Below are positions 17,447-35,981 of a stretch of DNA of 57,720 bases, piece after piece (position 1 is the stretch's first letter; every line of letters starts with the position of its first letter). Made by a program: the position numbers and the translations under genes. Source of the DNA: an uncultured virus (IMG/VR IMGVR_UViG_3300008262_000056) (taxonomy: Duplodnaviria > Heunggongvirae > Uroviricota > Caudoviricetes); IMG/VR virus record IMGVR_UViG_3300008262_000056, one strand, 5' to 3'. The notes under the pieces were generated by a model. It was not told where the DNA came from. It saw only the letters and a program-made list of their open reading frames with translations, and ran no database searches.

Positions 17447-20433
17447 TGGCCACACAGAAGTTTACTTGTCCACCTCAAAGTAGTGCCGCCAATGAATTCT
17501 CAAATAATTTGGTTGGAGTTCAGTTAGTCACTGGAGGAGGGTTAACGCAAGCAAATTTTAACTTCACAACAAACATATCCGAAAAACAGAATAGAACGTT
17601 TAATATTGGTACGTTTTCAGATCCAATAAATCTTGAGAGTATAAATATTGATAATAATATTGAAGCCGCTGAGATTTTAGCTAACAACTATAGAGTTTAC
17701 CCAAATTATGATTTATCTCAAGTAACAAACTTTACCCAATATGGTTCTTTAGTAAAAAGATTTTCAGTTTCAATAACTAAGATAATCAACTTTTATCCTG
17801 CAGGATTAGAGGTTTCACCAAATACAAATAAGTTTATAACTCAAGAAACGGCATTTAATATAACTTACGATGCGGTAGAGGACGACACAACTTTCGAAGT
17901 TTCAGTATCATCTATTAGAAATCCATTTGACATAGATTACACCGTTAATGCTGAAACTAATATGTTGTTTAATGAGATGGAAGTTTCACCTCTGAGGAAT
18001 ATGAAATTGGAGTATAAAAAATACGCCTTAGTTGTCAACGGCAATGAATATCCTGTAAATTATTTGTACCCTACGACAAGTAATTCATCTACATTAAAAT
18101 TAATTGTTGATGGAAACCCATTCAACGGGAATTCAATATCTTACGATTATATTGTTATAAGACCAAATAACTATGAAGTTAATAAAGTATTTAATCTGAA
18201 GTTTGATCCTGTTGAGAATTTTTTATTAAATAGAAATATTAATCCTCCATATACCGCAACTTTTACAGTACCAAGAGAACAAGAAGATGGAACATTTAAG
18301 ATAACAACAGAACTTGCCACATTCCCAAAATCAGGACTTTGGAACTTAGATATTGAATCACAAACATTTGATAACTACCTAACACAAATTAACGATTTTG
18401 CAATAAATCTTGATTCATATAACACGAATTTAGTTTCAAGATTTTTAACGACAGGTGCTCTGAAAGAGTTTGATACACCTGATCATAAATTTGAAAAACT
18501 TTTACAGATTTATGGTAGAAGTTTTGACGAAACTAAAGCATTCATTTCGGCGTTAGGTAATATTAATAGTGTTCACTATACTGTTAAAAATGATATACCG
18601 TCACAACTTTTGAAAAATTTGGCACAAACATTAGGTTGGGTAACAAACTTTTCACCTATATCGAATGAAGAATTGTTACAGGCAGTTTTTACAACACAAC
18701 CAAATACTTTTCCTGGTTTACAAATAGGACCAACGCCTGAGGAAATTAATTATCAATTTTACAGAAACTTAATTATAAATTCTGCGTGGTTATTTAAATC
18801 AAAAGGAACAAGAAAATCTATTGAGTGTCTCTTGAGGATGGTTGGAGCTCCTGAGGCTTTAATTGATTTTAACGAACACATTTATGTTGCTGATCAAAGA
18901 ATTAACATGAGTGAGTTTAATAAACAGTACTTACAATTATCGGGAGGAACTTTCCTACAAGAATATCCTGTATTAGAAACTAACAACACATACTCAATAC
19001 AAGGTATTCAGTACACTGGTTTTACAACAACATTTGCAAATGCAACAGTTTTAACTACAAGAGAAGATTATCCTGTTGATGAATTTGGATGTCCTAAAAT
19101 GCCAACACCAACGGAGGAATACTTTTTTCAAATTGGAGGAGGATGGTTCGAATCAACACCTCAACACAGGATGCCAGAATTTGTAATCCCAACAAATCAA
19201 GTATTCATAGGCGATAATCCTAATTTCCAAACTCAACTTTTACCTTTCAACTATGGAGAGGAATATCTACAACTGTACAGACATTTCCCATATATGAATT
19301 TGGGGTATAAGATTAGAAAAGTCCAAGATAATAAGAAAAGTTGGAGTGATACCTCACCAACACAACGAGTAAGTTCAGATGGTGGATTTAATGCTTATTA
19401 TGAAGTCGGTGAAGAATGTTTAACATTGAATGTAAAAAATGTTGACATTATGATGAATCCCGCACAAGGTTTGGTTTATGATGTTTGGACAATGTCTAGA
19501 CAATATAATTACCCAATACCTGAACAAGGTTTATTCTACACTCCTGACACACCTTGTAGTGTACCAAATCCTTACCCAAGATATGGTGGAATAGATTGGA
19601 CAACAATTATCCCAAAACCAAAACAAAAAACTTTCTTTGAATTTGCTCAAACATTTTGGAGAAATATGGTTAACACTAGAAACCGACAATTTATTACCGA
19701 TGGTAAAACTGGAGGTTACCCAACACTACAATCAATATATTGGAAATACTTAGAATCTCAGACACAAGCAGGAATACCAAATGATAATTTTACATACCAA
19801 ACTATGATAGATTATATTAATGGTATGGGTGACTATTGGATTAGAATGGTTGAACAAATGGTCCCTGCAACTACAATATGGAACACAGGAGTTAGATTAG
19901 AAAATTCAATATTTCATAGACAAAAATTTGTATGGAGAAGACAAGAAGGCTGTAAAATCGTTCCTGTTCCTTGTAAACCTTGTTCTTTGGCAACACAATT
20001 ATTTGTATACGATTGCCCTGTACAACAAGTGGTTTGTGGACTTTATCCTTGGAATAGTGACCCTACAATAACATCTATGGGTGCAGTCTTGAATGATACT
20101 TTAGATACTTTTTATAGCCAAAATTCATTAAACCCAACCGATTGTTTACAGAATTCAATTGTAACAACTTGGAATGTAGATTTGAGGGTAAATGGATTTG
20201 TATTGGTAATATCACCTTTCTACACAGGTATTGGACCATTCAATATCCCAACTAATTCAGAATGGGTTGACGCTTTGAGTAGTACATTAAATAATTTACT
20301 AACCTCAGGGTATAGTTATAATATTGATGAGGATAACGAACAAATAACAGTCTTTAACAATAATTGTCAACCTAATTTTGATGACTTTCAAATAAACATA
20401 GGACTTGAGTTCGAAATATATTGTAACGAATAA
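17446..20433 (+). CDS. Baseplate protein containing a P2 gpI/T4 gp7-like core
   Basis: IPSQLLKNLAQTLGW...YRNLIINSAWLFKSKGTRKSIECLLRMVG resembles the tail protein I 'KGT' motif. Confidence 0.6.
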   Translation: MATQKFTCPPQSSAANEFSNNLVGVQLVTGGGLTQANFNFTTNISEKQNRTFNIGTFSDPINLESINIDNNIEAAEILANNYRVYPNYDLSQVTNFTQYGSLVKRFSVSITKIINFYPAGLEVSPNTNKFITQETAFNITYDAVEDDTTFEVSVSSIRNPFDIDYTVNAETNMLFNEMEVSPLRNMKLEYKKYALVVNGNEYPVNYLYPTTSNSSTLKLIVDGNPFNGNSISYDYIVIRPNNYEVNKVFNLKFDPVENFLLNRNINPPYTATFTVPREQEDGTFKITTELATFPKSGLWNLDIESQTFDNYLTQINDFAINLDSYNTNLVSRFLTTGALKEFDTPDHKFEKLLQIYGRSFDETKAFISALGNINSVHYTVKNDIPSQLLKNLAQTLGWVTNFSPISNEELLQAVFTTQPNTFPGLQIGPTPEEINYQFYRNLIINSAWLFKSKGTRKSIECLLRMVGAPEALIDFNEHIYVADQRINMSEFNKQYLQLSGGTFLQEYPVLETNNTYSIQGIQYTGFTTTFANATVLTTREDYPVDEFGCPKMPTPTEEYFFQIGGGWFESTPQHRMPEFVIPTNQVFIGDNPNFQTQLLPFNYGEEYLQLYRHFPYMNLGYKIRKVQDNKKSWSDTSPTQRVSSDGGFNAYYEVGEECLTLNVKNVDIMMNPAQGLVYDVWTMSRQYNYPIPEQGLFYTPDTPCSVPNPYPRYGGIDWTTIIPKPKQKTFFEFAQTFWRNMVNTRNRQFITDGKTGGYPTLQSIYWKYLESQTQAGIPNDNFTYQTMIDYINGMGDYWIRMVEQMVPATTIWNTGVRLENSIFHRQKFVWRRQEGCKIVPVPCKPCSLATQLFVYDCPVQQVVCGLYPWNSDPTITSMGAVLNDTLDTFYSQNSLNPTDCLQNSIVTTWNVDLRVNGFVLVISPFYTGIGPFNIPTNSEWVDALSSTLNNLLTSGYSYNIDEDNEQITVFNNNCQPNFDDFQINIGLEFEIYCNE

Positions 20434-22631
20434 TGAGTATTTTAATTTATAATTATAGTGTAACGGGGGATTGTAGTAATACAGGTAGCGGTGCGGTTTC
20501 GTTTGATATAACTGGAAGTACACCAACAGTATCTCCTTTTAGTATTTCAGATGCAACAGGTCAAGGATTATTACCACTTTCTGCAGCAACAAATACATAC
20601 TCAGTAACTGGCCTTACAGGAGGCACATATTATGCTCAACTTACAGATTCTAGTACAGAAAAAGAAGTTTTAAACATTTATATTTCAACAGGCACTACAG
20701 CAACTATTGATTCGTCCAATACCACTTGTGGACAGAATAATGGAACCATAACAGGTTTCACGTCTGGCGTCTATGGACTTGTTTCTTTTAATTTATATGA
20801 TATAAGTAATAATTTAATTTCAGGTGTAACAACATCTAATTCTTATTATGAATTCACATCTCTTTCGGCCGGTACATATTACATTGTTGCAAACGATGGT
20901 GGTGGATGTACAGGAATAACCGCATCTGTAATATTAAATCCTTCATCAGGTTTAACATATGGTGCATATGTTGTTGATGATGCTAGTTGTTTAGGTTCAG
21001 GTAGTGGTAAAATTTTCTTAACAGGGTTAACACCACCATTGTCGGCATACACAATAACTTGGAGTCCTAACGCTTTAGGGCAAACAGGATCAACAATAAC
21101 AGGACTAACATCTGGATCTTATGTTGCTACTGTTACTAATTCAGTAGGATGTACGTTAAGTCAGTCATTTACTGTAAACACTATTCCGCCATTAACATCA
21201 GGTGGTTTTATTGTGGTATCACAACCTTCTTGTTTTGCCAATGATGGTGAAGTGGAGTTTATTGTTGTTGGTGGTACTGCACCATATTTTTTTAGTGGAT
21301 CATCAGGTCAAGTTGAAATAACATTTGATACTTCCGTAACTTTTACGGGACTATCTTCAGGATTATACTCATTTTTTGTGACAGATTCAGGTTTATGTAC
21401 AATTTATGATTCTGTAAGTTTAATAACACCAAACTCTTTTAGTACTGTTGCAGTAACAACAACTAACTCAACTTGTTCTGTAAATGATGGTAGTATTAAT
21501 GTTTTAGTTGATGGAGGACTTAGTACTGCAACCAACTTACAAATTTCGGTATCTGGAACAACAGGTATAAGTCAAATAGGATTGTTTGGTAGTTCTAATG
21601 AAACATTTAATGGTCTCGGAAGTGGAACATATATAGTAACAGTTGTATCTGCAGGTTGTACCTATACCGCATCAACAGTAATAAATTCTGTTAGTTTATA
21701 TAGTGCAACTACTGAAGTAACCGGAACTACATGTGGATTGAATAATGGGATTCTTGTTGTAAGTGCGTCAACAGGAGGAACTTTCCCATACACATATTCA
21801 TTAACAGGACCAAGTTACAACCCAAACACTACTACAAGCCAGTTCAACACGTTTACTAATTTAGCTAACGGAAATTACGTGTTAACAATACAAGATACCT
21901 CATCACCACCTTGTATACAAACATATGCGGTTAATATACCATATAGTCAAAGTGTAAACTTTAATCTATATCCAAACCAACCTGTAAATGGTAATGACGG
22001 ATCTATAACTGCGTTTATCACAAGTGGTGAACCACCTTTCACTTTAACTTGGAGTGGAGGAACTATAGGACTTCAAACAGGAAGTACTGTTACAGGTCTT
22101 ACTTCAGGTCCTTACAGTCTAACTGTAACTGATGCTAGTGGTTGTACACTAACAAAATACGCAACATTAACAGGTACTAAAAAATACACTAATTATTTAT
22201 ACTATAATGTTTGTGATAATACATTTACAGATAGTGGGTTAGTAACTAAAAGAACTATACGAGCAATGTATTTAGAAGGGTTCAATGACTTAACTAGTGG
22301 TGATACAAACTGTATTATAAATTCTGCAACTTTTACGATTGGTGCTGAAGTTGGTGGACAATCAGCAGAAACTATATTTTATACATCTTCTGGTTCTACA
22401 GATTACCCAAATGATATACTATGGGCAGACGCAATATCGACAATACTTAACGACTTTGTTGGAATATCAGATGTTACTATAGACCTACCTTCAAATAGAA
22501 TTATCATAAAAACAAACTGCGAAGAAATCACTAAAAACTGTGGTCCACAAACAATAAATCCATTACAAGATACTGAAATAAAAGTCAACTTATTGATTGA
22601 CTATGACATATCTTGTGTAAGTTGTAGTTAA
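20433..22631 (+). CDS. Putative tail fibre/adhesin with tandem SprB-like repeats
   Basis: Repeated C..NDG.I...GGT.PY.Y.W....TGL..G.Y..TVTD..GC units. Confidence 0.7.
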   Translation: MSILIYNYSVTGDCSNTGSGAVSFDITGSTPTVSPFSISDATGQGLLPLSAATNTYSVTGLTGGTYYAQLTDSSTEKEVLNIYISTGTTATIDSSNTTCGQNNGTITGFTSGVYGLVSFNLYDISNNLISGVTTSNSYYEFTSLSAGTYYIVANDGGGCTGITASVILNPSSGLTYGAYVVDDASCLGSGSGKIFLTGLTPPLSAYTITWSPNALGQTGSTITGLTSGSYVATVTNSVGCTLSQSFTVNTIPPLTSGGFIVVSQPSCFANDGEVEFIVVGGTAPYFFSGSSGQVEITFDTSVTFTGLSSGLYSFFVTDSGLCTIYDSVSLITPNSFSTVAVTTTNSTCSVNDGSINVLVDGGLSTATNLQISVSGTTGISQIGLFGSSNETFNGLGSGTYIVTVVSAGCTYTASTVINSVSLYSATTEVTGTTCGLNNGILVVSASTGGTFPYTYSLTGPSYNPNTTTSQFNTFTNLANGNYVLTIQDTSSPPCIQTYAVNIPYSQSVNFNLYPNQPVNGNDGSITAFITSGEPPFTLTWSGGTIGLQTGSTVTGLTSGPYSLTVTDASGCTLTKYATLTGTKKYTNYLYYNVCDNTFTDSGLVTKRTIRAMYLEGFNDLTSGDTNCIINSATFTIGAEVGGQSAETIFYTSSGSTDYPNDILWADAISTILNDFVGISDVTIDLPSNRIIIKTNCEEITKNCGPQTINPLQDTEIKVNLLIDYDISCVSCS

Positions 22632-22928
22632 ATGCCCTCACAAGTTACAATAGTATCGGCAATAGGTATTACACCACCATTTAGTGGAACCGCTTGTGAT
22701 GTCTATGGAAATCAATGTTCATATATAGGAAGTGGAACAACTTTTCCAATAACATTTACATTACCATCACAATTCAATACGGCTCCATCATTACAATTAA
22801 CATTACAAGATTCAATTGGATGTTTAGTGTCTGAAATAATTTATTGTTCAACCGAAGGATTACCAAAACAATTCCAAAATTTACAATATTACTTTTTTAT
22901 GGATGGAACTCAGTTTAATTTTCAGTAA
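22632..22928 (+). CDS. Small Cys-containing putative virion protein; paralog of 33495-33716
   Basis: MPSQVTI..G..PF...CD...C.YI...P..F.LP...DS.GCLV.E pattern shared with the 73-aa ORF. Confidence 0.55.
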   Translation: MPSQVTIVSAIGITPPFSGTACDVYGNQCSYIGSGTTFPITFTLPSQFNTAPSLQLTLQDSIGCLVSEIIYCSTEGLPKQFQNLQYYFFMDGTQFNFQ

Positions 22929-22949
22929 CCAAAATATTTATTATACGAT

Positions 22950-25856
22950 ATGGCATTATTAACGGATCAAATACAAGCTACTGGAGTTTCTCTAACAGAC
23001 TTAATTCACATAGTAATAACTGGTGATACTTCTCAAAATCCTGCGGGATCATCTTTTAAAGCATCAATTTCTCAACTTGTTAGTTTAATTAGTGGTTCTA
23101 CAGGAACAAACGGTACATCAGGAACTAATGGAAGTAGTGGTACAAATGGAACTAACGGTACATCAGGAACTAATGGGTCTAGCGGTACTAATGGGTCTAG
23201 CGGTACTAATGGAACAAACGGTACTTCAGGAACAAATGGATCTAGCGGTACTAATGGAACAAACGGTACTTCAGGAACAAATGGATCTAGCGGTACAAAT
23301 GGAACAAACGGTACTTCAGGAACAAATGGATCTAGCGGTACAAATGGAACAAATGGATCTAGCGGTACAAATGGAACTAATGGTACAAGCGGTCTAAGTG
23401 GTATTGGGTTATTTTTACCATTATCAGGGGGCACGGTTACGGGTAATACAATATTTAATGCCGGTTTAAGTGCGATAACAATATCGGCAACAACCTATCA
23501 AAACTTACCAAGTGATGTGATAATTATTGACTCAACACAGATTCAATCAGGATTTACAGGTGGAGTCTTGTTCCAAAGTTCAGCAAGTACGGTAAGTCAA
23601 ACTACTGGATTTACTTGGGATAATGTAAATAAAAGGTTGGGAATTGGGACTAACACCCCTCTCTATGACTTAGACGTTTATGGGTCTATCTATCAAAAAA
23701 CCGGAGAATTATTAATTACATCCACAAGTGGTGTTAATAAAGAAGGTCCATTTATAGCATCAGACGGCGGAACTAACAGAACCATTCAATTAGGAATTTC
23801 AGACAATTCAACTGTACCTGTCGGCATTGATATGTTTGTAACTAACAATACATTCCCGCCAAGTTACATGAACTTTAGAGTAAACGATGCTGATCTAGTT
23901 AGGATGTCTGGTAGTTCTGTTATAATTAGCGGTCTTACATATACAAGTGGTATAACCTCTACATCTAAAATAACATTTCCACAGCTGACAATTAATAGTT
24001 CATACACCATGACTGATAATGATTTTATGATTGATGTTACAGGAGGAACATTCAACGTACAATTACTATCTGCCGTAGGAAGACAAGGAAGAATAGTTGT
24101 TATTAAAAATAATGGTGGAGGTGCAGTTACGGTAGTCCCTTATGGTAGTGAAACTATAGATCTAGCACCATTTGTTATTTTAGGTGAAACAAACTCATTA
24201 CAATTAGTAAGTAATGGTAGTTTTTGGGTTGCAATGTCTTATAATATCTCAACAGTAAACTCATCAACAGGTGTTTTTGAATTTAGTGGTTTGACAAAGG
24301 CAAGTAATACCACATTTAATGTTGCCCCTGTTAAAGGTTGGATAGTTGATGATACAACTAATCCGTTGAGTCCCCAACTTTTATTTGTTTATTTTACTGG
24401 AGGAACGTATACTGATAGTTTTGTAACAACGGCTTTTGAGACATTTGTTTATTTAACAAGTGGTGCAACAATTGGACAACAATCAACACCACTAACTGAA
24501 CAACAAAGAAGACAAAATATATTTTTAGGTAAAATAGGACACCCTGAAAAAGTTTCAATTAACTTAGTGTTTTCACAACCTGATTTTGTTTTATCACCAT
24601 TATCTCAACTTCGTGATATGTTTGTACCTATTAATTTAATTAATGGGGGTGTATATCCATCAGCCAACGGAGCAAACTTAAAATTCAACACAAGTGCCGG
24701 GTTTATATATGGATTAGGTATTAATTTTGCATCGAATACATTGAACCCAAATGCATTATCGATATCAGGAACAAGCCCTTGTACATTCCAATATAGAACA
24801 CAAACAGGAGGAACGGTTACAAATGTTACAGATATTGACCCACTTAACTATGATGTTGGGGGTGTTATAACTCCAATCACAGGTACTAAAGCCACAAACC
24901 AAAGAATTTACCTATTGCAAAATGGACAATTTAGAATTCAATATGGTCAAACCGAATATAACACTTTAGTACAGGCGATAGAAGCATTACAAACAGAAAC
25001 ATTCACAATATTCCCCAATTTTGTAAATAATGCCGTTCTTATTGGTATATTAACGGTGTTAAGTACCGCAACGGATTTGACCGATACAACTAAAGCAAGA
25101 TTCTTTTTTGCGTCTAAGTTTGGTGAAACTGTAGGTGCTACGGGGGGTGTGTCAACAACAAACCTACAACAAGCTTATAATAACTCAGTACAACCTGAAA
25201 TAACAACCAACTCAACTTTAGGTGCGTTCTCAATCAAAAATGGTACGGGTAATCCTGATGCCACCACAAATTTATTTGAAGGAATTAATTCTGCAAATAC
25301 TTTAACATCGGTAATCACCGCAAGAGGTACTATCACAGGGTCTAGTATTACTACAAATGGTGCTGTGACGGGAGCTACCGTAATTGGTGATGTTATATCG
25401 GGTAACACAGTGTCGGCCTCAACACTTAACCTTGCAGGATCACAAATAAATACTGCTTGGACATCTTATGTACCTGTTTTGACCGCAAGTGTAACTAATC
25501 CTGTAATTGGTAATGGAACCGTAGAAGGTTGGTATAAAATAGTTGGTAAAACATGTTTTGTGAGAGGAAATATTGTAATGGGATCAACAACAACATTTGG
25601 TGCAGGAGAATGGTATGTGTCAGTACCATTTACCGCGGCTCATGCTGATGCAATATTATTAAATGCTGACATATTAGATAATGGGACCGCTTGGTATAAT
25701 GCATTTATAGCGGGTGCAAGAGCAGGATTTAATACCAAAGCGGCAATACAATATCAAAATACAGGAGGAACTACAGATAGTGTTTCACCAAGTACCCCAT
25801 TTACTTGGACAACTGGTGATAGATTTTTATGGAATGGAAGTTATGAAATCGCATAG
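22950..25856 (+). CDS. Putative tail fibre with Gly-X-Y repeat stalk
   Basis: About 35 G-X-Y triplets; FTWDNVNKRLGIGTNTPLYDLDVYG fibre motif; C-terminal WTSYVP...GWYKIVGKTCFVRG tip-like domain; TATTTAT at 22935. Confidence 0.75.
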   Translation: MALLTDQIQATGVSLTDLIHIVITGDTSQNPAGSSFKASISQLVSLISGSTGTNGTSGTNGSSGTNGTNGTSGTNGSSGTNGSSGTNGTNGTSGTNGSSGTNGTNGTSGTNGSSGTNGTNGTSGTNGSSGTNGTNGSSGTNGTNGTSGLSGIGLFLPLSGGTVTGNTIFNAGLSAITISATTYQNLPSDVIIIDSTQIQSGFTGGVLFQSSASTVSQTTGFTWDNVNKRLGIGTNTPLYDLDVYGSIYQKTGELLITSTSGVNKEGPFIASDGGTNRTIQLGISDNSTVPVGIDMFVTNNTFPPSYMNFRVNDADLVRMSGSSVIISGLTYTSGITSTSKITFPQLTINSSYTMTDNDFMIDVTGGTFNVQLLSAVGRQGRIVVIKNNGGGAVTVVPYGSETIDLAPFVILGETNSLQLVSNGSFWVAMSYNISTVNSSTGVFEFSGLTKASNTTFNVAPVKGWIVDDTTNPLSPQLLFVYFTGGTYTDSFVTTAFETFVYLTSGATIGQQSTPLTEQQRRQNIFLGKIGHPEKVSINLVFSQPDFVLSPLSQLRDMFVPINLINGGVYPSANGANLKFNTSAGFIYGLGINFASNTLNPNALSISGTSPCTFQYRTQTGGTVTNVTDIDPLNYDVGGVITPITGTKATNQRIYLLQNGQFRIQYGQTEYNTLVQAIEALQTETFTIFPNFVNNAVLIGILTVLSTATDLTDTTKARFFFASKFGETVGATGGVSTTNLQQAYNNSVQPEITTNSTLGAFSIKNGTGNPDATTNLFEGINSANTLTSVITARGTITGSSITTNGAVTGATVIGDVISGNTVSASTLNLAGSQINTAWTSYVPVLTASVTNPVIGNGTVEGWYKIVGKTCFVRGNIVMGSTTTFGAGEWYVSVPFTAAHADAILLNADILDNGTAWYNAFIAGARAGFNTKAAIQYQNTGGTTDSVSPSTPFTWTTGDRFLWNGSYEIA
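23094..23408 (+). repeat. Coding tandem repeat of 9-nt units (GTN/GSS/GTS) with a 45-nt higher-order unit
   Basis: ggaacaaatggatctagcggtac(t/a)aatggaacaaacggtacttca repeated nearly exactly. Confidence 0.95.
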
Positions 25857-25910
25857 ACTTTAAAATTCAAAATTAATTCACTTTACCTTATTTTAATTTA
25901 ATTTTCCTAT

Positions 25911-26891
25911 ATGGAAAATATGTTATTTGTTTCAGCACAACCCGATGTCCCCTACTTTATATGGCAAATAAAATTGTATGTTCATAATTTTATTGAAAAA
26001 GGAATCAACCCAAATCAAATACATGTTGTTTTAGGGTTAGTCAATAATGTAAACACACCATCTAAAGAATCAGAACAACTTAAAGAGTTAGGGGTTAATG
26101 TGCATTACTTTGTTGATCAAAGATCTAAAAAACATTATATACCAAGTATTAAACCATACCTCATCTCAAAGTGGATACAGTCAAATCCTGATTATGGAAA
26201 ATTATTTTTCCTTCATGATGCTGACATTATTTTTAAAGAATTACCGAGTTTTGATCGGTTGTTAAAAGATGAGGTTAGTTATTTATCTGATACAATAGGA
26301 TACATTGGATATAACTATATTATGGATTGTTGTGAAAGATATGAACAACAACACCCCAATTCAGATAAAGGACAACTTATAAGTGAAATGGCAGATGTAA
26401 TTGGTGTTGACGTTGAGACAATCAAAATTAATCAAGAAAATTCTGGTGGAGGACAATACCTAATCAAAAATACAAATTGTGAGTTATGGGATAAAATCTA
26501 TAGAGACTCAACTACTATGTATGACAAGATGTTGGATTATCAAAAAAGATTCCCGATAAATCCAGGTCAAATACAATTTTGGACTGCTGAGATGTGGTCA
26601 TTATTATGGAATTTATGGTTGTATAATATTGAAACTAAAGTTACAGAAGATCTTGATTTTTCTTGGGCAACGGATACCATAGAAACTTATGAAAAAAAAC
26701 CAATACTTCATATGGCTGGTGTGACTGATAACCTAAGAGCTACAAAATTCTACAAAGGTGATTACATTAATATAAACCCAATTTCTAAGTTGAGAGAAAA
26801 CCCTAATCATTTTGATTACATAGATAAAGATAGTTCGACAATAAAATATATCGATAATATGAAATCTTATATTCAAAAATACAACATATGA
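25911..26891 (+). CDS. GT-A fold glycosyltransferase resembling plant peptidyl-serine galactosyltransferase / hydroxyproline arabinosyltransferase
   Basis: YFIWQ, YIPSIKP, FLHDAD (DxD), GGGQY, WTAEMW and PILH motifs in the order seen in SERGT1/HPAT enzymes (recalled). Confidence 0.7.
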   Translation: MENMLFVSAQPDVPYFIWQIKLYVHNFIEKGINPNQIHVVLGLVNNVNTPSKESEQLKELGVNVHYFVDQRSKKHYIPSIKPYLISKWIQSNPDYGKLFFLHDADIIFKELPSFDRLLKDEVSYLSDTIGYIGYNYIMDCCERYEQQHPNSDKGQLISEMADVIGVDVETIKINQENSGGGQYLIKNTNCELWDKIYRDSTTMYDKMLDYQKRFPINPGQIQFWTAEMWSLLWNLWLYNIETKVTEDLDFSWATDTIETYEKKPILHMAGVTDNLRATKFYKGDYININPISKLRENPNHFDYIDKDSSTIKYIDNMKSYIQKYNI

Positions 26892-26908
26892 TTATTTATT
26901 GTTAATAG

Positions 26909-28987
26909 ATGGTAGAAAATTGTTATATATTATATTCTTGCGACGGAAGTTACGAACCGATCATTTCAAACTTTAGTGGGTTGAGCGCTTATTCGGCATC
27001 ATACATCTCTGTAAATTCGATAGATTCAGTAACAATAGAGGAGACTTGTTTTTATGTGTTAAGTTTAGGTGTGATAGACTGTACCATAACAAACGAAATA
27101 ACAATTTCAACAGGGATAACATGCAATTGTCAATGTTATTGTTATTTTATAAGATCTGTGGTTCAAACAACTGATGTTACATATGTTAATTGTAATGATG
27201 AAATTATTGTCGATACTATCCAAGAAGGATTAACTTATAATATTTGTAGTAAAGTTTATCCACAGTTTGATAATCAAGTACAAATCCCAATTAAATTAAC
27301 TGACATTTGTGTTGATAACCAATGTCCACCAACAATCCCAACTGTAAAACCAACAAACGAATGTGATGTTATTACTATATTCCCTATGGGAGTTACTTGT
27401 ATAACACAACAACCTTCATCAGAAAGAAATTTTGACGGGGCGGTTGAATTAGTTGTAACAGGAGGAACGCCACCTTATACTATATTTTGGGAAGTTGGAA
27501 GTTTTGCGCCAGCACTTACTAATCTTGGTGTTGGAGAATACTCAGCATCTGTTACGGATTATTATGGTGATTTCTCAGCATTTACAACTTGTGTTTTAAC
27601 TGCTGAAACTATAAATTATTCAGGTATGTGTTTTGTATTAACAGGTGTAGTAGAGGATCAGTTAGTATACATTAATTCAGAAGTAAAAGGGTTTAAAAAT
27701 ACCAAACCATACTTTGAAATACAATATGGTGTAAATCTTTTGGGTTACGTTTTTTGGGACCCAAGTTCGTCGAATAAATGGTTTTTTTGTCAAACATTAG
27801 ATTGTCAATTATCACCATATAATACACTTATATTACCTGATGGATTATATCCTACAGGAACAACAGGTGATTGGCAAGTTGTTTCAGACACACCGTATTT
27901 AATTGTTGAATCAACAATTGGTAATTGTTCGCCACCAACAATACCTAAAGAACAGTTTCCTCTTTGTGCAACAATAGTTTTAAGATCGACAAAACCTGGT
28001 TCTGCAACAATCACATCACAGGTCCAACTTGACCCAAGTGTCGAAATAAATGGAGAACCTAGTTGGTCATCATCAACAGATCAATATGTTGTATATTGGA
28101 ATAGCGGATCAACACCTGCTCAGTGGGTTATGACAGGGTTTACTAACCCATCAACATTGGTTTCAAATAATGATCCTTCATATCCGCCTGTAAGTAATTG
28201 GCAGGTTTATGGTTCACCTGAAGTTTATAGTGTTGATATTACACAAGGTGAATGTTCAGAATCATACATTGTATTAGCGTCTGCAATTGTAAATGATGCT
28301 CTATGTGGAGACAATGGTAATATTACCGTAAGTGCTTCGGGAGGAGATGCACCATATCAATATTCAATAGACGGAGGAATATCATATCAACCATCACCAA
28401 TATTTAGTAATGTTTTACCAGGAACTTACAGTGTATTTGTAAAAGACGTAAACACAACAATAGGTTCGTTTGGACCAGTGGTAGTTAATAACATACCAAC
28501 CACCATTTATAATGTAACAATGAATGTAAATTACAATAATAATACTTTTACGTTAACCGCACCATCGTTACCTGTTGGAGCTACCTTAACAGTGGACGTG
28601 GTTATGTCATCAGTATTCAATTATTACCCACAAAGTTTAAGTCCAATACCTACATATAATAATTTTACAACTATTAATGGTGTAGGTCTTATGACAAACA
28701 TTAATACGACAGCTAATACATATCCTTTAGGTGGACCTTGTAGTGTTCCTGGACCATTGAATAATACTCAAATTAGTAATACGTATTTAAACACAATAAC
28801 ATTAACAAGCGGTCAAGTTGTTACAGGTAGTACTACAAATAGTATTATTAATGCTCCTGTTACATCTTGCTCAAATGCTTTAGGGTATTATACACTATCC
28901 ATAGCTAATGCAATGATAAACAACTGTCAATGTTGTGATGCGAATCTAATTAATACGGTTCCACCAGCACCACAATCAGTTTTATAA
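26909..28987 (+). CDS. Cys-rich putative virion/fibre protein with SprB-like repeats
   Basis: VTGGTPPYTIFW...NLGVGEYSASVTD and ASGGDAPYQYSIDGG...FSNVLPGTYSVFVKD; TATTTAT at 26893. Confidence 0.65.
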   Translation: MVENCYILYSCDGSYEPIISNFSGLSAYSASYISVNSIDSVTIEETCFYVLSLGVIDCTITNEITISTGITCNCQCYCYFIRSVVQTTDVTYVNCNDEIIVDTIQEGLTYNICSKVYPQFDNQVQIPIKLTDICVDNQCPPTIPTVKPTNECDVITIFPMGVTCITQQPSSERNFDGAVELVVTGGTPPYTIFWEVGSFAPALTNLGVGEYSASVTDYYGDFSAFTTCVLTAETINYSGMCFVLTGVVEDQLVYINSEVKGFKNTKPYFEIQYGVNLLGYVFWDPSSSNKWFFCQTLDCQLSPYNTLILPDGLYPTGTTGDWQVVSDTPYLIVESTIGNCSPPTIPKEQFPLCATIVLRSTKPGSATITSQVQLDPSVEINGEPSWSSSTDQYVVYWNSGSTPAQWVMTGFTNPSTLVSNNDPSYPPVSNWQVYGSPEVYSVDITQGECSESYIVLASAIVNDALCGDNGNITVSASGGDAPYQYSIDGGISYQPSPIFSNVLPGTYSVFVKDVNTTIGSFGPVVVNNIPTTIYNVTMNVNYNNNTFTLTAPSLPVGATLTVDVVMSSVFNYYPQSLSPIPTYNNFTTINGVGLMTNINTTANTYPLGGPCSVPGPLNNTQISNTYLNTITLTSGQVVTGSTTNSIINAPVTSCSNALGYYTLSIANAMINNCQCCDANLINTVPPAPQSVL

Positions 28988-29013
28988 ATTGAATATAAGA
29001 ATATTTACAATAA

Positions 29014-31518
29014 ATGGCTTACATAATTAAAAATACATCTGGTTTAGTTAACACTCGTGTAACGGATACAGGTAGACAAAAAATGTCTGAAGGTAATTTT
29101 AATATCTTGTACTTTGCAGTAGGGGATAGTGAAGTTTCATACAATGAATTACCATCAACATACAATCAGGCTAATACTGTTGTATTAGAGCCACAGTTCA
29201 ATGCGCAGAATAGTTCAGGTGTTCCTGAGTCAAATAGACAGTACATCAAATATCCATATTTAGTTGATGAGGGACAAACAAACATATATGGTATTCCTTT
29301 TATGGATTCAGGTATTGAATCTGTTTATAATAGAGCAGCCATGAGAGGATTTTTCACAGGAAATACAACAGCGTCTACTATAGATTGGAAAGCATTAGTT
29401 AACAACACATATGTTATCACACCAAATTATGTAGTTAATATGTCTACGTTGAACGGAACAAATCAAATAAGTGTACAAAGAATGGACTGTAACGTTCAAA
29501 ATAATAATACACCTAATGTTGGAGATTTTATAACAATATATTACGATGGAAGGGCAGAAACTGATTGTTCTTGTACTAATTTCCCTACACCAACACCTAC
29601 ACCTTCATTGTATAGTACACCAACACCTACACCAACACCAACAGGTACAAATTCAATACCATGTGCTTCACCAACACCAACACCTTCACCAACGCATACA
29701 CCATGTTTAACACCAACACCAAGTGCTCAATGTCCCGTACCACCACCACCTGATTGTTTGAAAGATGTGGTAAGTTGTTTTTCAATTTTAACTTATAGAA
29801 TTGTTGAAGTTTGTGGTGATGTTTTAACGTTAGATAGAGAGACACCTGATTTTACAAATTTATCTATTGATTGTTGGGCGAGAACATTAATTTATCCACC
29901 ACAGATGGTTCCTTTGTATGATAGTTTTACACCTGAACCACATTGGAGTAAAAGTGTGATTGACTTCGAATCGGTTTGTGATACTGATCAGTTTGATGTT
30001 AAAATATGGAATATGAACATTCCTTGGACTGAGAGTCCTGCTGGTTTAGCGTCGGCTCAATTTCAAGACTATACAAAATTTGGTTCTATTAATTATATAG
30101 GACAAAAAGAATATTTTGGATACACTTCATCTGATGGTCAAACATCTACGGACGATGTGTATTACTACAATTCTTTTGGTGAAAAAATTGTAGTTACACC
30201 TGAAGAACAAAAAACTATAGCAATTATACACTATACTAACCAAACCATTGATTTCTTCTATGGTGAAAAATTTGCATTAGAACCATACGACACTCAAAAC
30301 CCTGAGAACACCCAAGGTCAAGCAAGAAATTTCAAGTTACATATGCCAACAATAATGTGGCATAAAAATCCTGAATGTTGTTTTGGACAAACGTTTTGGG
30401 TTGATCCTCCTGGATTTGACAATCAAAATTTATTTCAAGTTCAATATACTAAATCTAAGATTTCACAACAAATGAATCAACCTGGACTTAGGTATTATAA
30501 TCTTTGGGATACATTTGCACAACCTAATGGTCAACCAAGTAGAGTAGGTAAAGTTTACCCCGATTCAAAACTAATTGTTATTGACGACGAAGAATTGGTG
30601 GCCGCTCTATCATATAAATCAAATAGAAACTGGACATTACCGGCACCACAAGTGTCTTTAATAACACCAAACACGTGTGGAACTTCAAATACTACAGGTG
30701 TTTTGACAGGAGGAGGAGAAACACTTTGGGTGACTTATAGATTATCAAATTCAAACACATTTACAAATTCATTACATAGTAATTACTACACAAGTGTCGT
30801 TGGAACTGAAAATGTCTGTTCACCTGAAACACCAAAGAATGTTGCAATTAGATTTGGTGGAGATTTCCCATGTTTAGTACAACCTGGATTCTCACCAACA
30901 ACTACAACCACAACATTTAATCCTGTAACCACATCAACAACTACAATTAATCCACCATATACAACAACTACAACAACTCAGTGTCCTGTATGTACTGTTC
31001 CTGCTGGATTCTACGCACAACAGTTCCAAGTATTGGCTCAAAAAACATTATCGGGAGTAAGACCTGATCCGGCACAATGGAGGTTAATTGATTTTACAAG
31101 TCAAATTGAACAATACTTCATTAATGGTTATGTAACGCAAGAATCTTTAACTGCAACTACTTTTGTTGTGACTGCAGAAAATTATGGAAGTGCACCTATA
31201 TACAATCTAAACAATTACATAAGTTTAGTTCCTAATGGTGCTACAGGACAACAATTAAATTTTGGTGATGAATACTATTTCTACGGTAATTTAGAAACCG
31301 ACATTCAAGCAACATTGTATGAGATGAAATATAAAATTAACTTAAGTGATAATGAATTCTTACTCTCTCAAAACCCAACTTGGACCCAAGGAACACCATC
31401 TTATGTTACAGAAATCGCTCTTTTAGATGAAAATAAAGATGTTTTAGTTATGTCTAAAATGCAATCACCTATCTTAAGACAAGGAATTCAACAGTACGTT
31501 ATCAAATTAGATTTCTAA
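29014..31518 (+). CDS. Putative tail-collar/baseplate protein with Pro-Thr and poly-Thr insertions
   Basis: N-term TDTGRQKM...YFAVGD and C-term VTEIALLDENKDVLVMSK resemble the two halves of a P2 gpH-like collar domain; TATTTAC at 29002. Confidence 0.6.
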   Translation: MAYIIKNTSGLVNTRVTDTGRQKMSEGNFNILYFAVGDSEVSYNELPSTYNQANTVVLEPQFNAQNSSGVPESNRQYIKYPYLVDEGQTNIYGIPFMDSGIESVYNRAAMRGFFTGNTTASTIDWKALVNNTYVITPNYVVNMSTLNGTNQISVQRMDCNVQNNNTPNVGDFITIYYDGRAETDCSCTNFPTPTPTPSLYSTPTPTPTPTGTNSIPCASPTPTPSPTHTPCLTPTPSAQCPVPPPPDCLKDVVSCFSILTYRIVEVCGDVLTLDRETPDFTNLSIDCWARTLIYPPQMVPLYDSFTPEPHWSKSVIDFESVCDTDQFDVKIWNMNIPWTESPAGLASAQFQDYTKFGSINYIGQKEYFGYTSSDGQTSTDDVYYYNSFGEKIVVTPEEQKTIAIIHYTNQTIDFFYGEKFALEPYDTQNPENTQGQARNFKLHMPTIMWHKNPECCFGQTFWVDPPGFDNQNLFQVQYTKSKISQQMNQPGLRYYNLWDTFAQPNGQPSRVGKVYPDSKLIVIDDEELVAALSYKSNRNWTLPAPQVSLITPNTCGTSNTTGVLTGGGETLWVTYRLSNSNTFTNSLHSNYYTSVVGTENVCSPETPKNVAIRFGGDFPCLVQPGFSPTTTTTTFNPVTTSTTTINPPYTTTTTTQCPVCTVPAGFYAQQFQVLAQKTLSGVRPDPAQWRLIDFTSQIEQYFINGYVTQESLTATTFVVTAENYGSAPIYNLNNYISLVPNGATGQQLNFGDEYYFYGNLETDIQATLYEMKYKINLSDNEFLLSQNPTWTQGTPSYVTEIALLDENKDVLVMSKMQSPILRQGIQQYVIKLDF

Positions 31519-31572
31519 TAAAACTACAATTTTTATCTTCATAGTTTATAATATAAATAAAATAATAGTTTT

Positions 31573-32181
31573 ATGGCAAAAAATTTAAAAAACTCCCCCA
31601 AAGTTTTGGGTCTTGATATTTCCACAAAAACCATAGGGTGGGCATTGTTTGATATTAAAACACAAGAATTACTTGAATTAACTCACATCTCACCAAGACC
31701 AAAAATGGAAAAAGATGAGGATGATAAATTAAAAGAATTATTGTTAAAATCAGAAATATTTGCCGAAAAACTTAAACAATATAAAGATTTAGGAATTGTT
31801 AGAATTATCATAGAAGAACCACTTTTGAATTCTAATAACATTTATACAATACAAACACTATTAAGATTTAATAGTTTTGTGTTTAAAGAAATCTATAATA
31901 TAATGGGAATTGTTCCTGAATTTATTTCAACTTACAACTCAAGAAAATTTGCATTCCCAGATTTAGTTCAAGAAAACGATAAGAAAAAATTTGTATTATT
32001 TGGTGGATTACCAAAAGACGTGGATAAGAAAATGATCATTTGGGAAAAAGTTGCAAAAAGAGAACCCCAAATTACATGGCATTATACAAAAAACAATACA
32101 TTAAAGAAAGAAAATTTTGATCAAACAGACGCCTATACTTGTGTTTTAGGATTTATGAGATCAAAAGAAATTTGGAAATAA
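31573..32181 (+). CDS. RuvC-like Holliday junction resolvase
   Basis: VLGLDISTKTIGWA, IIIEEP and DQTDAY acidic catalytic motifs. Confidence 0.8.
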   Translation: MAKNLKNSPKVLGLDISTKTIGWALFDIKTQELLELTHISPRPKMEKDEDDKLKELLLKSEIFAEKLKQYKDLGIVRIIIEEPLLNSNNIYTIQTLLRFNSFVFKEIYNIMGIVPEFISTYNSRKFAFPDLVQENDKKKFVLFGGLPKDVDKKMIIWEKVAKREPQITWHYTKNNTLKKENFDQTDAYTCVLGFMRSKEIWK

Positions 32182-32206
32182 TATCTTTTATATAACCGAT
32201 AATTTG

Positions 32207-32238
32207 AAATATCGTCTTTTTAGACGATATTTTTTTTT
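32207..32238. terminator. Intrinsic terminator between convergent genes, possibly bidirectional
   Basis: AAATATCGTCT-TTTT-AGACGATATTT 11-bp stem followed by a T run. Confidence 0.85.
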
Positions 32239-32239
32239 A

Positions 32240-33493
32240 TTAACAAATTGCGCCTGTATCTGTAGCGGTAAAGTTAGGTGAAGTTGACGTTGGAATTGTA
32301 ATTGAACAAACGTAAACGGATGTATAACCGTTTAATCCACCTGTAGATACTGTTCCATCACACTCGTAGTAGTCATATTTAACAAAACTTGGACTATTAT
32401 TCTCAACGTACCATCTTGTAAGGATACAAGGAGGTAAAGTTGTAGTTGTGGTTGTAGTACTTGTTGATGTTGTGGTCGTAGTTGGTTGTATATTAGAAAA
32501 ACAAGCTAAACAAGAACCATCAACTCTTGAACCTATTTCAGTTAATAATACAACTGTGTCAACCCCACTTATGTTTTCAAACAAACCTTCAAATGTAACA
32601 CAAGTTTGTTGACCGTTAATTTCTGCAAAATATACGTAATTTTCTAAAGGAGTATTTCCTGAAATTAAAACTAAATCTGAAGTATAATAATCTACACCAT
32701 TGAAACAATCACTAAATCTTTTACTATTAGCACATTGAATTACTTCAGTAAACGTATTGAATATAACTTCGCCTGAAAAATTACAAGGATAGTTAATAGT
32801 TGTTGTGGTAGTCGTTGTTGGTGCTATTGTGGTTGTAGTTGTGGTATATGTGACCGCAATAGCCGTAATTGACTTTCCACTACAAGGATTAGGAAGTACT
32901 GTTGTCGTAGTAGTCGTTGTGGGGGCTGCTGTAGTTGTTGTAGTTGTTGTAGGAACTAAACAATCAAAAATGGCGCTAAAATCAAATGTAGCACATGGAT
33001 CCACAGTTGTGGTTGTTGTTACACAAATTCCGGTATACGCTACCGTGTCGTCAAAATCAGGACAATCTGATGTGCTTCCAAAAGGACCAAACTGATCACA
33101 TGGGTCACCTAAGTTTTGTGCTAAACACCATCTTGTTTCACCTGTTGAATAAAACATGAAATATCCGGTGGTTTGACCTGTAAAATAAGATTCACCATCG
33201 TAAATTCCTGCTAACTGATAAGTGTCATCATAATTAGTGTCGTTTTCAACACAAAAAAACTGAGGACAAGTACAACCTGAACTACCAATAATTGTACCTG
33301 AACCATCTATATCATATACATCTATACCATCTGAATAGTATGATAGTAATGCTGGACTACTACATATTGAGTCTAAATAAACAATGTCACCTACAGTTAA
33401 ACCACTACCATAAAGAGTAAAACTCAAAGTAGATCCACAGGAACTGTTAGGGTCTGAGGCGGATGAAAATAAACCTAAATTATTACAAGACAT
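32240..33493 (-). CDS. Cys-rich mucin-like putative virion protein with several poly-Thr tracts
   Basis: Several T5-T8 runs between Cys-rich modules; shares modules with 26909-28987. Confidence 0.6.
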   Translation of the reverse strand: MSCNNLGLFSSASDPNSSCGSTLSFTLYGSGLTVGDIVYLDSICSSPALLSYYSDGIDVYDIDGSGTIIGSSGCTCPQFFCVENDTNYDDTYQLAGIYDGESYFTGQTTGYFMFYSTGETRWCLAQNLGDPCDQFGPFGSTSDCPDFDDTVAYTGICVTTTTTVDPCATFDFSAIFDCLVPTTTTTTTAAPTTTTTTTVLPNPCSGKSITAIAVTYTTTTTTIAPTTTTTTTINYPCNFSGEVIFNTFTEVIQCANSKRFSDCFNGVDYYTSDLVLISGNTPLENYVYFAEINGQQTCVTFEGLFENISGVDTVVLLTEIGSRVDGSCLACFSNIQPTTTTTSTSTTTTTTTLPPCILTRWYVENNSPSFVKYDYYECDGTVSTGGLNGYTSVYVCSITIPTSTSPNFTATDTGAIC

Positions 33494-33494
33494 A

Positions 33495-33716
33495 TTATAT
33501 CAACAAATTTTCTTCAACCAAACAATTATTACTATCAACTGATTTTACACCTACCGAACCCATACCTTCTAAAATATACGGAAGATCAAAAACATATGGG
33601 ATTTGACCCGATGTTATTGTATCTATGTAAATACAAGTTGTGTAACCTGTATCACATGTGTAAATGTCAAAAGGTGAAGAACCGCTTAAACCAGTAATTG
33701 TAATTTGTGTTGGCAT
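33495..33716 (-). CDS. Small putative virion protein; paralog of 22632-22928
   Basis: Similarity noted above; TATTTAT on the minus strand at 33724-33730. Confidence 0.6.
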   Translation of the reverse strand: MPTQITITGLSGSSPFDIYTCDTGYTTCIYIDTITSGQIPYVFDLPYILEGMGSVGVKSVDSNNCLVEENLLI

Positions 33717-33755
33717 ATCAACAATAAATATAAAAGAACATGAAAGTTTGTGTAG

Positions 33756-33784
33756 TTGATGTATTGAAAGTTTATGTTTATATT
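33756..33784 (+). promoter_or_regulatory. Putative early/middle promoter TTGATG-N17-TATATT for primase operon
   Basis: 17-nt spacer; ATG 7 nt downstream; similar arrangement at 35534, 48533, 52087 and 57237. Confidence 0.5.
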
Positions 33785-33791
33785 ATAAGGG

Positions 33792-35554: not shown

Positions 35555-35562
35555 ACTATTAT
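35534..35562 (+). promoter_or_regulatory. Putative sigma70-like promoter TTGACT-N17-TATTAT
   Basis: Near-consensus -35/-10 with 17-nt spacer; ATG at 35568. Confidence 0.55.
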
Positions 35563-35567
35563 TGAGT

Positions 35568-35660
35568 ATGACACTAACAATAACACCTACTTGGGTAACA
35601 ACAACTAGTTGGGACCAATTATTACCTATTAAAGTAAAAATAAACTATATTATAAAATAA
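35568..35660 (+). CDS. Small 30-aa ORF MTLTITPTWVTTTSWDQLLPIKVKINYIIK (not in ORF track)
   Basis: Fills the gap between a promoter and the next ATG (35663). Confidence 0.4.
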   Translation: MTLTITPTWVTTTSWDQLLPIKVKINYIIK

Positions 35661-35662
35661 AA

Positions 35663-35878
35663 ATGGACGATATTATTAAACCAAAGATTGATCTTAGACA
35701 ACAACAGACAATCAAATGTGAAAAATGCGAGTCAAAGTTCTTCAAAGAAGTAACAATGCTTAAGAAAGTACCTAAATTATTAACAGGAAGTCACGAAGAC
35801 ACAATTGTACCATTCCCAACTTATATGTGTAATGAGTGTGGTCACGTAAACGAAGACTTTGAATTATTCATAGACTAA
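35663..35878 (+). CDS. Small zinc-ribbon protein
   Basis: CEKC...CNECGH. Confidence 0.75.
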   Translation: MDDIIKPKIDLRQQQTIKCEKCESKFFKEVTMLKKVPKLLTGSHEDTIVPFPTYMCNECGHVNEDFELFID

Positions 35879-35973
35879 TGGAAATAGGTAAAATGACTAT
35901 CAGTGAAGCAGAACCATACTTAGAAAGTATTGCAATGCTTTATGGATTAAACTTGGGTAAAGTTAAACAATAA
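35878..35973 (+). CDS. 31-aa ORF, possibly a truncated gene (MEIGKMTISEAEPYLESIAMLYGLNLGKVKQ)
   Basis: TAATG coupling to upstream gene; early stop. Confidence 0.4.
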   Translation: MEIGKMTISEAEPYLESIAMLYGLNLGKVKQ

Positions 35974-35981
35974 TTGAAAAG

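Follow-up and report, generated by a model that had tools for sequence, protein, structure and literature searches.

The window analysed here, a stretch of 57,720 nucleotides from an uncultured virus of the Caudoviricetes (IMG/VR record IMGVR_UViG_3300008262_000056), contains at positions 25911 to 26891 a gene for a 326 amino acid protein which, according to its structural model, is a GT-A-fold glycosyltransferase. Comparison of sequences from many phages makes it quite probable that this cytoplasmic enzyme O-glycosylates runs of threonine (poly-Thr tracts) in the phage's own structural proteins and is made together with the late fibre genes. The fold is that of glycosyltransferases, catalytic-type residues are conserved, and enzyme and poly-Thr are genetically coupled.

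Phage particles are usually treated as bare protein and, to our knowledge, glycosylated virions are documented only for some mycobacteriophages. Glycosylation of mycobacteriophage virions being known, what would be new here is an unrelated and widespread family that O-glycosylates virions on a simple poly-Thr tag.

Sequence family and predicted fold of the enzyme

The gene and its predicted catalytic residues are as follows.
25911..26891, + strand: predicted glycosyltransferase gene, 326 aa (open reading frame (ORF); phrog_4417 match; GT-A model)
26217..26225, + strand: DxD motif D103-A-D105, predicted metal and nucleotide-sugar ligand (conservation in 62 sequences)
26709..26711, + strand: invariant His267, predicted third metal ligand (conservation; role taken from GT8-type enzymes)

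The protein matches phrog_4417, a PHROGs family of unknown function (E 1.8e-67; residues 4–319 on profile positions 1–290 of 293). At E ≤ 10 it matched no family in Pfam, GT8 (PF01501) included, and none in NCBIfam; PF01501 was likewise matched by none of the 62 homologues of the main family alignment (29–86% identity) at E ≤ 1. The motifs quoted in the original prediction, PYFIWQ..HNF, YIPSIKP..W, HDADIIF, GGGQY, WTAEMW and PILH, are all present in the protein and fall on the most conserved columns of this alignment (invariant or at least 90%). Conserved columns are Y15, W18, Q19, N26, Y76, D103, D105, G179, G180, Q182, W224, M228, W229, H267 and K282; D105, G180, W229, H267 and K282 are invariant in the 62 sequences and D103 is conserved in at least 90%. 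The same columns are conserved in a second alignment of 55 distant members, headed by a distant member, with H267 and D105 invariant and D103 again at 90% or more.

The family is large, with 1215 proteins (E ≤ 0.001) when clustered at 90% identity and 839 representatives in a 50%-identity collection, 313 of which are below E 1e-30. The best 120 of the 1215 relatives are 74–86% identical and are all named 'hypothetical protein', save one that carries a tara coordinate string. Searches with tblastn located the family in 77 phage records, all at less than 40% identity (Lactobacillus 23, Enterococcus 21, Staphylococcus 11, Lactococcus 8, and others), and a megablast search of the phage collection with window positions 20000–40000 gave no match. 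Overall, the family is found in phages of Bacillota and Bacteroidota and in aquatic T4-like phages.

Sequence and family-profile searches of solved structures gave chance-level matches only (TAL-effector repeats, E 0.02; GNPTAB, 0.78). The AlphaFold2 model of the protein, built on the alignment, has a predicted local distance difference test score (pLDDT) of 97.4 and a predicted template modelling score of 0.94. With it, a structural search found 103 solved chains at Z ≥ 8, the top 24 of which are all glycosyltransferases. The best match is glycogenin (Z 15.8 over 226 residues; another glycogenin chain, 15.1), followed by LgtC (14.3), the UGGT catalytic domain (14.1), the Skp1 alpha-galactosyltransferase (6mw8; 14.1), WbbM (14.0), GlyE (13.7), 3tzt (13.0) and PBCV-1 A64R (11.1), the last involved in capsid glycosylation. 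Foldseek returned 343 matches at E ≤ 0.001, and its values for WbbM, UGGT, XXYLT1, GTA/GTB and glycogenin lie between E 4e-7 and 2e-5. A search of the viral structure library brought up no close match apart from two phage proteins that are uncharacterised, of which one is Orf49 of Lactobacillus phage LP65. On this model the nearest solved folds are retaining GT8/GT24 enzymes. The earlier assignment of the gene to the glycosyltransferases is supported by the predicted GT-A fold, the invariant D105 of the DxD motif and the invariant His.

A DxD motif and a downstream His serve as metal ligands in GT8-type enzymes. In the phage enzyme the motif has the context H-D103-A-D105, around model strands 98–101 and 106–108, and by analogy D103, D105 and H267 would bind Mn2+ and the mechanism would be retaining. 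The 326-residue protein appears to be soluble and without a membrane anchor, because the model opens with a strand at residue 5 (5–11). Glycogenin, LgtC, UGGT, the Skp1 enzyme and GlyE resemble it in fold (Z 13.7–15.8 over 216–243 residues), in the DxD plus downstream His and in being soluble and cytoplasmic; several act on proteins or protein-bound glycans, and GlyE is an enzyme of the pneumococcal serine-rich-repeat adhesin pathway. The phage enzyme differs from the GT8/GT24 enzymes in sequence (7–12% identity) and in its putative acceptor, a bare poly-Thr peptide.

Genetic coupling of the enzyme with poly-Thr tracts

Poly-Thr was defined strictly as [ST]{6,} with at least 5 T, and genes bearing it are referred to as tagged. 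Positions are counted in genes from the enzyme gene.

Six cultured-phage records were inspected, one of them Chryseobacterium MA9V-3, and the neighbouring genes were translated in the other five. In these five (phiFL1A, Lactococcus 1706, Clostridium phiCTP1, Lactobacillus Bacchae and Staphylococcus PT94) the enzyme homologue lies directly after a gene whose product ends in poly-Thr; in four of them the annotation of that gene is major tail, tail tube or major structural protein. In the family tree the five enzymes group in a single clade and thus represent one lineage present in several unrelated phage types.

The arrangement was quantified in 80 diverse IMG/VR loci, with enzymes 42–75% identical to a distant query member and genes called greedily by length. 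Poly-Thr is found at -1 on the same strand in 43/80 loci, at -2 in 6/76, at -3 in 7/72, at +1 in 3/79 and at +2 in 2/73, compared with 2/607 genes at five or more genes away (Fisher p 2e-43 for -1 against the distant genes). With only genes of at least 300 aa the counts are 40/55 at -1 against 0/87 distant. Single-linkage enzyme clusters have poly-Thr within two genes in 37 of 53 cases at 90% identity and in 26 of 37 at 70%. The tagged -1 gene ends 0–69 nt ahead of the enzyme gene. A PHROGs scan of 30 of the 41 distinct tagged -1 proteins (near-duplicates and two proteins of more than 1700 aa being omitted) gave five major tail proteins, five virion structural proteins, three PHROGs of unknown function and 17 proteins with no family; the five major tail proteins consist of a tube domain followed by modules separated by poly-Thr. 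By eye, the 37 loci lacking a strict -1 tract include about ten with near-miss tracts such as TTTTRPPATTTT and four in which a tiny ORF separates the enzyme gene from a tract at -2.

In the window's own lineage the poly-Thr lies downstream of the enzyme, matching the ORFs at +2 and +4 in the window. Among 80 loci of this lineage it is found at -2 in 0/74, at -1 in 1/77, at +1 in 34/79, at +2 in 49/73, at +3 in 16/69 and at +4 in 17/68. The two window ORFs concerned are:
29014..31518, + strand: conserved protein, 834 aa, with (PT)n and poly-Thr linkers (ORF; tract rule)
32240..33493, - strand: Cys-rich protein, 417 aa, with five poly-Thr tracts (ORF; tract rule)

Enzyme and tag are also gained and lost together. 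The major tail protein of phiFL1A was used as a query, and all 27 of the 27 IMG/VR loci (64–100% identity) were compared. The enzyme is at +1 in 12 of them, and all 12 carry a poly-Thr C-terminal tail on both the tube protein and a capsid protein of about 325 aa, the gene for which is 2.4 kb upstream. None of the 15 enzyme-less loci has any poly-Thr ORF (p 6e-8). On the tree of the tube-protein core, with tails removed, the trait needs four changes, and well-supported branches force at least two.

A corresponding comparison within the window's lineage used the 834-residue protein as a query and gave 79 loci, of which 66 have more than 4.5 kb of upstream flank and 13 were set aside. Enzyme and poly-Thr in the 834-residue homologue occur together in 56/66 loci, the enzyme without poly-Thr in 7/66, poly-Thr without the enzyme in 0/66 and neither in 3/66, two of which are probably near-duplicates (p 0.003 for the association). 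In the alignment of these homologues (39 of 56 distinct sequences) the conserved domains are joined by a pair of low-complexity linkers. All 39 rows have the (PT)n linker, including the enzyme-less ones, in which the poly-Thr linker is either deleted (L253, L247) or swapped for unrelated sequence (L265). Poly-Thr therefore tracks the enzyme and (PT)n does not, since the enzyme-less rows keep the one and lose the other; the (PT)n linker is a conserved hinge, independent of the transferase. The co-occurrence with Thr/Pro-repeat genes that had been put forward for checking holds for poly-Thr and fails for (PT)n.

Homologues are not confined to recognised phage records. Among GTDB species genomes, those with the family belong to Bacillota, Bacteroidota, metagenome-assembled Actinomycetota and a few others. 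Next to stand-alone homologues (less than 420 aa) poly-Thr is found at -1 in 36/51 loci and anywhere in the locus in 41/51. In many Bacillota loci there is a C-terminal poly-Thr on each of three proteins, of ~210 aa (-1), 390–400 aa (-6) and ~105 aa (-5), and their sizes and order resemble those of tail-tube, capsid and small head proteins. The pairing with poly-Thr is a property of the stand-alone form and not of the whole family, because it is seen at -1 in 36 of 51 stand-alone loci and in none of 29 long ones. Domains found fused to homologues are GT60 (PF11397), O-FucT, GT2, GT6, GT7C, GT25, GT29 and an F5/8-type-C lectin; the 13 long forms that were scanned carry extra GT7C, GT60, O-FucT or lectin domains, or nothing recognisable.

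Long fused forms of 450–1377 aa are present in Chitinophaga, Pedobacter, Mucilaginibacter, Acidimicrobiia and others (L286, L293, L296, L297, L299, L302, L312). A family member in an IMG/VR contig is fused to a GT29 sialyltransferase domain (L164:8001-9485; E 2e-20). A protein of 1915 aa that is 65% identical (P0271) joins a family member to GT1, GT2 and FkbM methyltransferase domains.

Taken together, the positional linkage and the repeated joint gain and loss provide strong comparative support for a phage that glycosylates its own structural proteins. The original prediction that the phage glycosylates its own fibres is accordingly strengthened in its general form, with the acceptor narrowed to poly-Thr.

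Proposed mechanism, alternatives and related systems

In the mechanism proposed here, a cytoplasmic, metal-dependent GT-A enzyme, probably retaining, would use a UDP-hexose, would be made together with the late fibre genes and would O-glycosylate Thr in poly-Thr tracts before or during assembly. The acceptors in the window would be the poly-Thr linker of the 834-residue protein and the five tracts of the 417-residue protein. The outcome would be stiff, mucin-like, glycan-covered linkers on the particle, with shielding, protease resistance or adhesion as possible benefits. We infer in this scheme the acceptor, the first-sugar role, the donor sugar, the stereochemistry and the benefit. Co-folding of the enzyme with Mn and residues 615–665 of the 834-residue protein scored 0.01 against a mark of 0.32 and, having been run without controls, is neutral either way.

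Several observations weigh against this mechanism. In the window itself poly-Thr is missing from the -1 gene and occurs at +2 and +4. Among the 80 diverse loci, 31 have no tract within two genes by the strict rule and 26 have no T-rich tract by a relaxed one (at least 8 T in 12 residues); by eye, nothing was seen within three genes in ~15–17 of the 37 loci that lack a strict -1 tract. Seven loci of the window's lineage have the enzyme and no strict poly-Thr in the 834-residue homologue, and 10 of the 51 stand-alone genomic loci have no poly-Thr in the locus. The long forms (at least 420 aa; Bacteroidota, Actinomycetota) have it at -1 in 0/29 and in the locus in 1/29. In G001, the nearest IMG/VR record (136,112 bp, rated 46% complete), of which the window corresponds to ~58.6–116.3 kb, GT60, GT1, GT9 and other sugar genes mean that another enzyme could add the first sugar. 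Finally, passages of 10.1101/2023.12.21.572611 describe some phage DNA-modifying transferases as resembling GT8 or PBCV-1 A64R folds, so the fold alone leaves the acceptor unfixed.

The first of the alternatives is that the enzyme extends a glycan: another transferase, such as the GT60 (PF11397) enzyme of G001, would prime the Thr and the family member would then add an alpha-linked hexose. GT8-type enzymes add later sugars on Skp1 and serine-rich-repeat adhesins, and the structural neighbours Skp1 alpha-galactosyltransferase, GlyE, UGGT and LARGE1 use sugars as acceptors. GT60 and O-FucT domains occur in fusion with homologues, and G001 encodes, apart from the window's enzyme, a distinct GT60 protein (E 1e-70) along with GT1, GT9, a sulfotransferase and APS kinase. 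These belong to a sugar island at G001 positions 1–19331, outside the window and interleaved with two collagen-like fibre genes, which also encodes a cytidylyltransferase-like protein, a ConA-like lectin, an HtrL/YibB-like protein and a 231-aa poly-Thr protein; its GT1 is fused to an FkbM methyltransferase (969 aa). The gene content of the island suggests complex, possibly sulfated or methylated glycans. Against an elongating role, phiFL1A (complete, 38.8 kb) has the enzyme and poly-Thr in 2 of 63 ORFs, these being the major head and major tail proteins, both C-terminal, and no other recognisable transferase: none of its 52 ORFs of at least 60 aa matches a Pfam glycosyltransferase family and its annotation names no transferase. 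The family member is therefore the only candidate transferase in phiFL1A and must add the first sugar there, unless a host enzyme primes the tag, as a host transferase could. Moreover, in the 27/27 tail-tube loci the tag co-varies with the phrog_4417 enzyme alone. Elongation is thus unlikely, although the G001 sugar island and the homologue fusions (GT60, O-FucT) keep it as the main rival for the window's phage; the family enzyme probably adds the first sugar.

A second alternative, which is improbable, is that the enzyme acts on a host envelope polymer (teichoic acid, lipopolysaccharide (LPS) or capsule) or on phage DNA and that the link to poly-Thr is indirect, for instance through a shared adsorption module. 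Phage transferases classically modify DNA or the host surface, according to passages of PMC12619734; GT8-like folds include LPS enzymes such as LgtC, and the long fused homologues of Bacteroidota and Actinomycetota have no poly-Thr at -1 (0/29). The model, however, has no membrane segment, the gene lies within late structural operons, 0–69 nt behind the tagged gene, and capsid and tube are tagged together only where the enzyme is present. The G001 Pfam scan covered 125 of 131 genes; of the six that cross 20-kb cut points, four were scanned from the window and two outside it (19358–21397 and 38436–40280) were left out. The 52 phiFL1A and 125 G001 ORFs gave no match to a thymidylate-synthase, hydroxymethylase or TET-type family, so a hydroxymethyl-base substrate is not evident. 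Phage DNA-modifying GT-A enzymes, as described in parts of 10.1101/2023.12.21.572611, carry R..DDD..EDY/F motifs, unlike the phrog_4417 family, and have neighbouring 5mYOX or ThyS genes; in the Pfam scans of G001 and phiFL1A neither feature was seen.

A catalytically dead fold that binds or chaperones poly-Thr proteins is very improbable, with the DxD, His, GGxQ and WxxxMW columns (near-)invariant over 29–86% identity, as in an active site.

With O-glycosylation of poly-Thr by the enzyme as the preferred reading, the closest known counterpart is in mycobacteriophages. Virion O-glycosylation was reportedly described in Che8, Corndog and Myrna by Freeman et al. in Cell Host Microbe in 2023. Passages of PMC12619734 and PMC12363180 state that the C-termini of mycobacteriophage capsid and tail-tube proteins are glycosylated by Che8 gp110-type enzymes, and those of PMC12363180 that the virion glycans blunt antibody recognition. 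The phiFL1A-type arrangement is similar in that poly-Thr tags, as putative targets, are on the C-termini of the major head and tail proteins, as they also appear to be in many prophages. Unlike the mycobacteriophage targets, the poly-Thr tracts of the window are internal linkers of fibre-like proteins. Che8 capsid and tube proteins end in ...KTGS and ...SDGS, not in poly-Thr, and the Che8 transferase genes are at the far right genome end rather than after the tagged gene. Alignment of the family profile by hhalign with Che8 gp108, gp109 and gp110 gave probabilities of 0.05%, 0.15% and 0.40%, indicating no homology, and mycobacteriophages are absent from the 77 phage records found by tblastn. 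Virion poly-Thr O-glycosylation by a new enzyme family, unrelated to the Che8 transferases, is probable on sequence comparisons. A full-text literature search, with subscription journals mostly outside its scope, found nothing linking the family or poly-Thr tags to phage glycosylation.

The original prediction had placed the enzyme close to plant peptidyl-serine galactosyltransferases and hydroxyproline (Hyp) arabinosyltransferases (GT96 and GT95). This kinship was not reproduced, PF23452 (HPAT; cut-off 23.9 bits) giving no significant match in any test. The profile did not match the 326-residue protein at E ≤ 10; among homologues it matched 2/62 only at E ≥ 0.09, 0/73 diverse members at E ≤ 0.05 and 0/30 long forms at E ≤ 0.001. 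As a precomputed domain it is on 0/120 listed relatives, a list seeded with the five members nearest HPAT, and a six-frame search of G001 found none, a result that is uninformative alone as the control genomes were silent too. That list was drawn up to look for sequences bridging to HPAT; DUF7164, on one of the 120, is a separate C-terminal domain (residues 369–473). In the ESM Atlas, 19 of the 30 nearest named clusters are in a set with PF23452 on 10% of members, which is a lead from a neighbour list only. Plant HPAT/SGT1 enzymes are Golgi membrane proteins with a type II anchor and use Hyp or Ser acceptors in extensin motifs. The phage enzyme would resemble them in placing sugars on repetitive, extended Ser/Thr/Pro-type segments; it differs in having no N-terminal anchor and in a co-varying tract made of Thr instead of Hyp or Ser. 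The 125 Pfam-scanned G001 ORFs yielded no prolyl-hydroxylase family.

GT60 polypeptide alpha-GlcNAc transferases start mucin-type O-glycans on Thr (Dictyostelium, Trypanosoma cruzi) and act on Hyp of Skp1. The likeness to the system proposed here is in cytoplasm- or Golgi-facing initiation on Thr-rich, mucin-like tracts, and GT60 domains are fused to homologues and a GT60 gene is present in G001; the difference is in the domain, the 326-residue protein having no match to PF11397.

In a wider proposal, a short poly-Thr tag and a dedicated soluble GT-A enzyme would form a portable two-part system, widespread in tailed phages of Bacillota and Bacteroidota and in aquatic T4-like and jumbo phages, by which any capsid, tube or fibre protein could be tagged, the enzyme being anciently related to those by which plants and algae initiate extensin glycosylation. 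On this proposal virion glycosylation would be widespread among phages, and the mycobacteriophages no special case. It is put forward tentatively, as slightly more doubtful than not. If O-glycosylation of poly-Thr is correct, many phages would have a glycan coat, including those of Enterococcus, Staphylococcus, Lactococcus and Lactobacillus, which are relevant to therapy and dairy, as well as abundant aquatic phages. The coat would bear on how particles are recognised by the immune system, on their stability, adsorption and adherence to mucus, and on the interpretation of cryo-electron microscopy, and the tag and enzyme would be a very simple genetically encodable pair for glycosylation. The hypothesis is directly testable in cultured phages.

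Genome context of the window and candidate acceptors

The window is part of a T4-like myovirus. It encodes gp25-like and Baseplate_J wedge proteins, a gp55-like sigma factor, SbcCD, RNR, primase and a DnaB-like helicase, to which the G001 scan adds sheath, gp19 tube, gp32 and DNA polymerase B. Besides the 25911–26891 gene, Pfam and PHROGs identified no enzyme family in the same-strand 4.8–31.5 kb block, in agreement with the earlier statement that it is the only enzyme-like gene there. ORF translations likewise bore out the repeat-bearing neighbours described previously. Further features near the enzyme gene are:
22950..25856, + strand: collagen-like tail-fibre protein, 968 aa, upstream of the enzyme (Pfam Collagen, E 1.9e-14; tail-fibre PHROGs)
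26909..28987, + strand: SprB-repeat protein, 692 aa, downstream of the enzyme (Pfam SprB, E 5e-12)
32206..32233, strand not assigned: strong hairpin terminator, 12-pair stem then a T run, closing the + strand fibre/enzyme unit

Strict poly-Thr occurs in just two window ORFs (of at least 80 aa), at +2 and +4 and both within 6.6 kb of the enzyme gene. The best candidate acceptor within the window is the 834-residue protein, with a poly-Thr linker at 30898–30978 (residues 629–655) and a (PT)n linker at ~29581–29733 (about residues 190–240). Its AlphaFold2 model, from 39 sequences, has a mean pLDDT of 46.8, too low for a fold search, so its role in the virion is taken from context; an ESM Atlas query with it gave no usable match. 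The second candidate is the 417-residue protein, with tracts at about 32798–32950 and 32438–32482; its homologues in the same place often have poly-Thr. The 692-residue SprB-repeat protein has none in the window, and its lineage homologues often do. The 968-residue protein has no strict poly-Thr and carries a (GTN/GTS/GSS)n run at ~23094–23400. Glycosylated G-x-T collagen-like regions are known in the Bacillus exosporium protein BclA, and the run is a possible acceptor. A Thr/Ala/Ser/Pro linker is present in ORF 54387–55076.

The (PT)n linker at 29581–29733 is flanked by conserved cysteines. The collagen-like repeat at 23094–23400 varies in copy number, the protein having 968 aa in the window compared with 983 in G001, and contigs from RNA libraries have joints and loose ends inside it; repeat slippage or assembly ambiguity is the likely explanation.

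No terminator-like site was found between 25856 and 25911, and the hairpin at 32206–32233 closes the unit, so co-transcription of the enzyme with the fibre genes is the simplest reading. An exact TATTTAT is absent from the 54 bases preceding 25911, as had been noted. The motif occurs 36 times in the window against 38.4 expected and is thus not enriched, so that its absence before the enzyme gene says little. The suggestion that the enzyme is expressed before its substrates is not upheld, given this lack of enrichment and the lack of a terminator after the upstream fibre gene. TATTTAT was dropped as a late-promoter marker on the same count; it is found 8–25 nt ahead of several gene starts (4765, 7139, 16515, 22935, 26893, 42221, 46435, 52980 and 55141), and may perhaps be part of some longer consensus for late promoters.

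Auxiliary genes include a full DnaJ (J domain, zinc finger and C-terminal domain) at window positions 50464–51381, a 731-aa protein with Fe/Mn superoxide dismutase domains at G001:26690-28882(-) and a glutamine-synthetase-like protein at G001:124504-125634. In two freshwater metatranscriptome runs, contigs of relatives, mostly 90–99% alike, lie over parts of 22950–31518. They cover 25869–26171 and much of 28969–31518 and, as DNA carry-over is possible, are no proof of transcription, strand or level; gaps in their coverage carry no information. Close protein relatives also come from a marine (tara) source, and the window's lineage appears to be aquatic and broadly spread.

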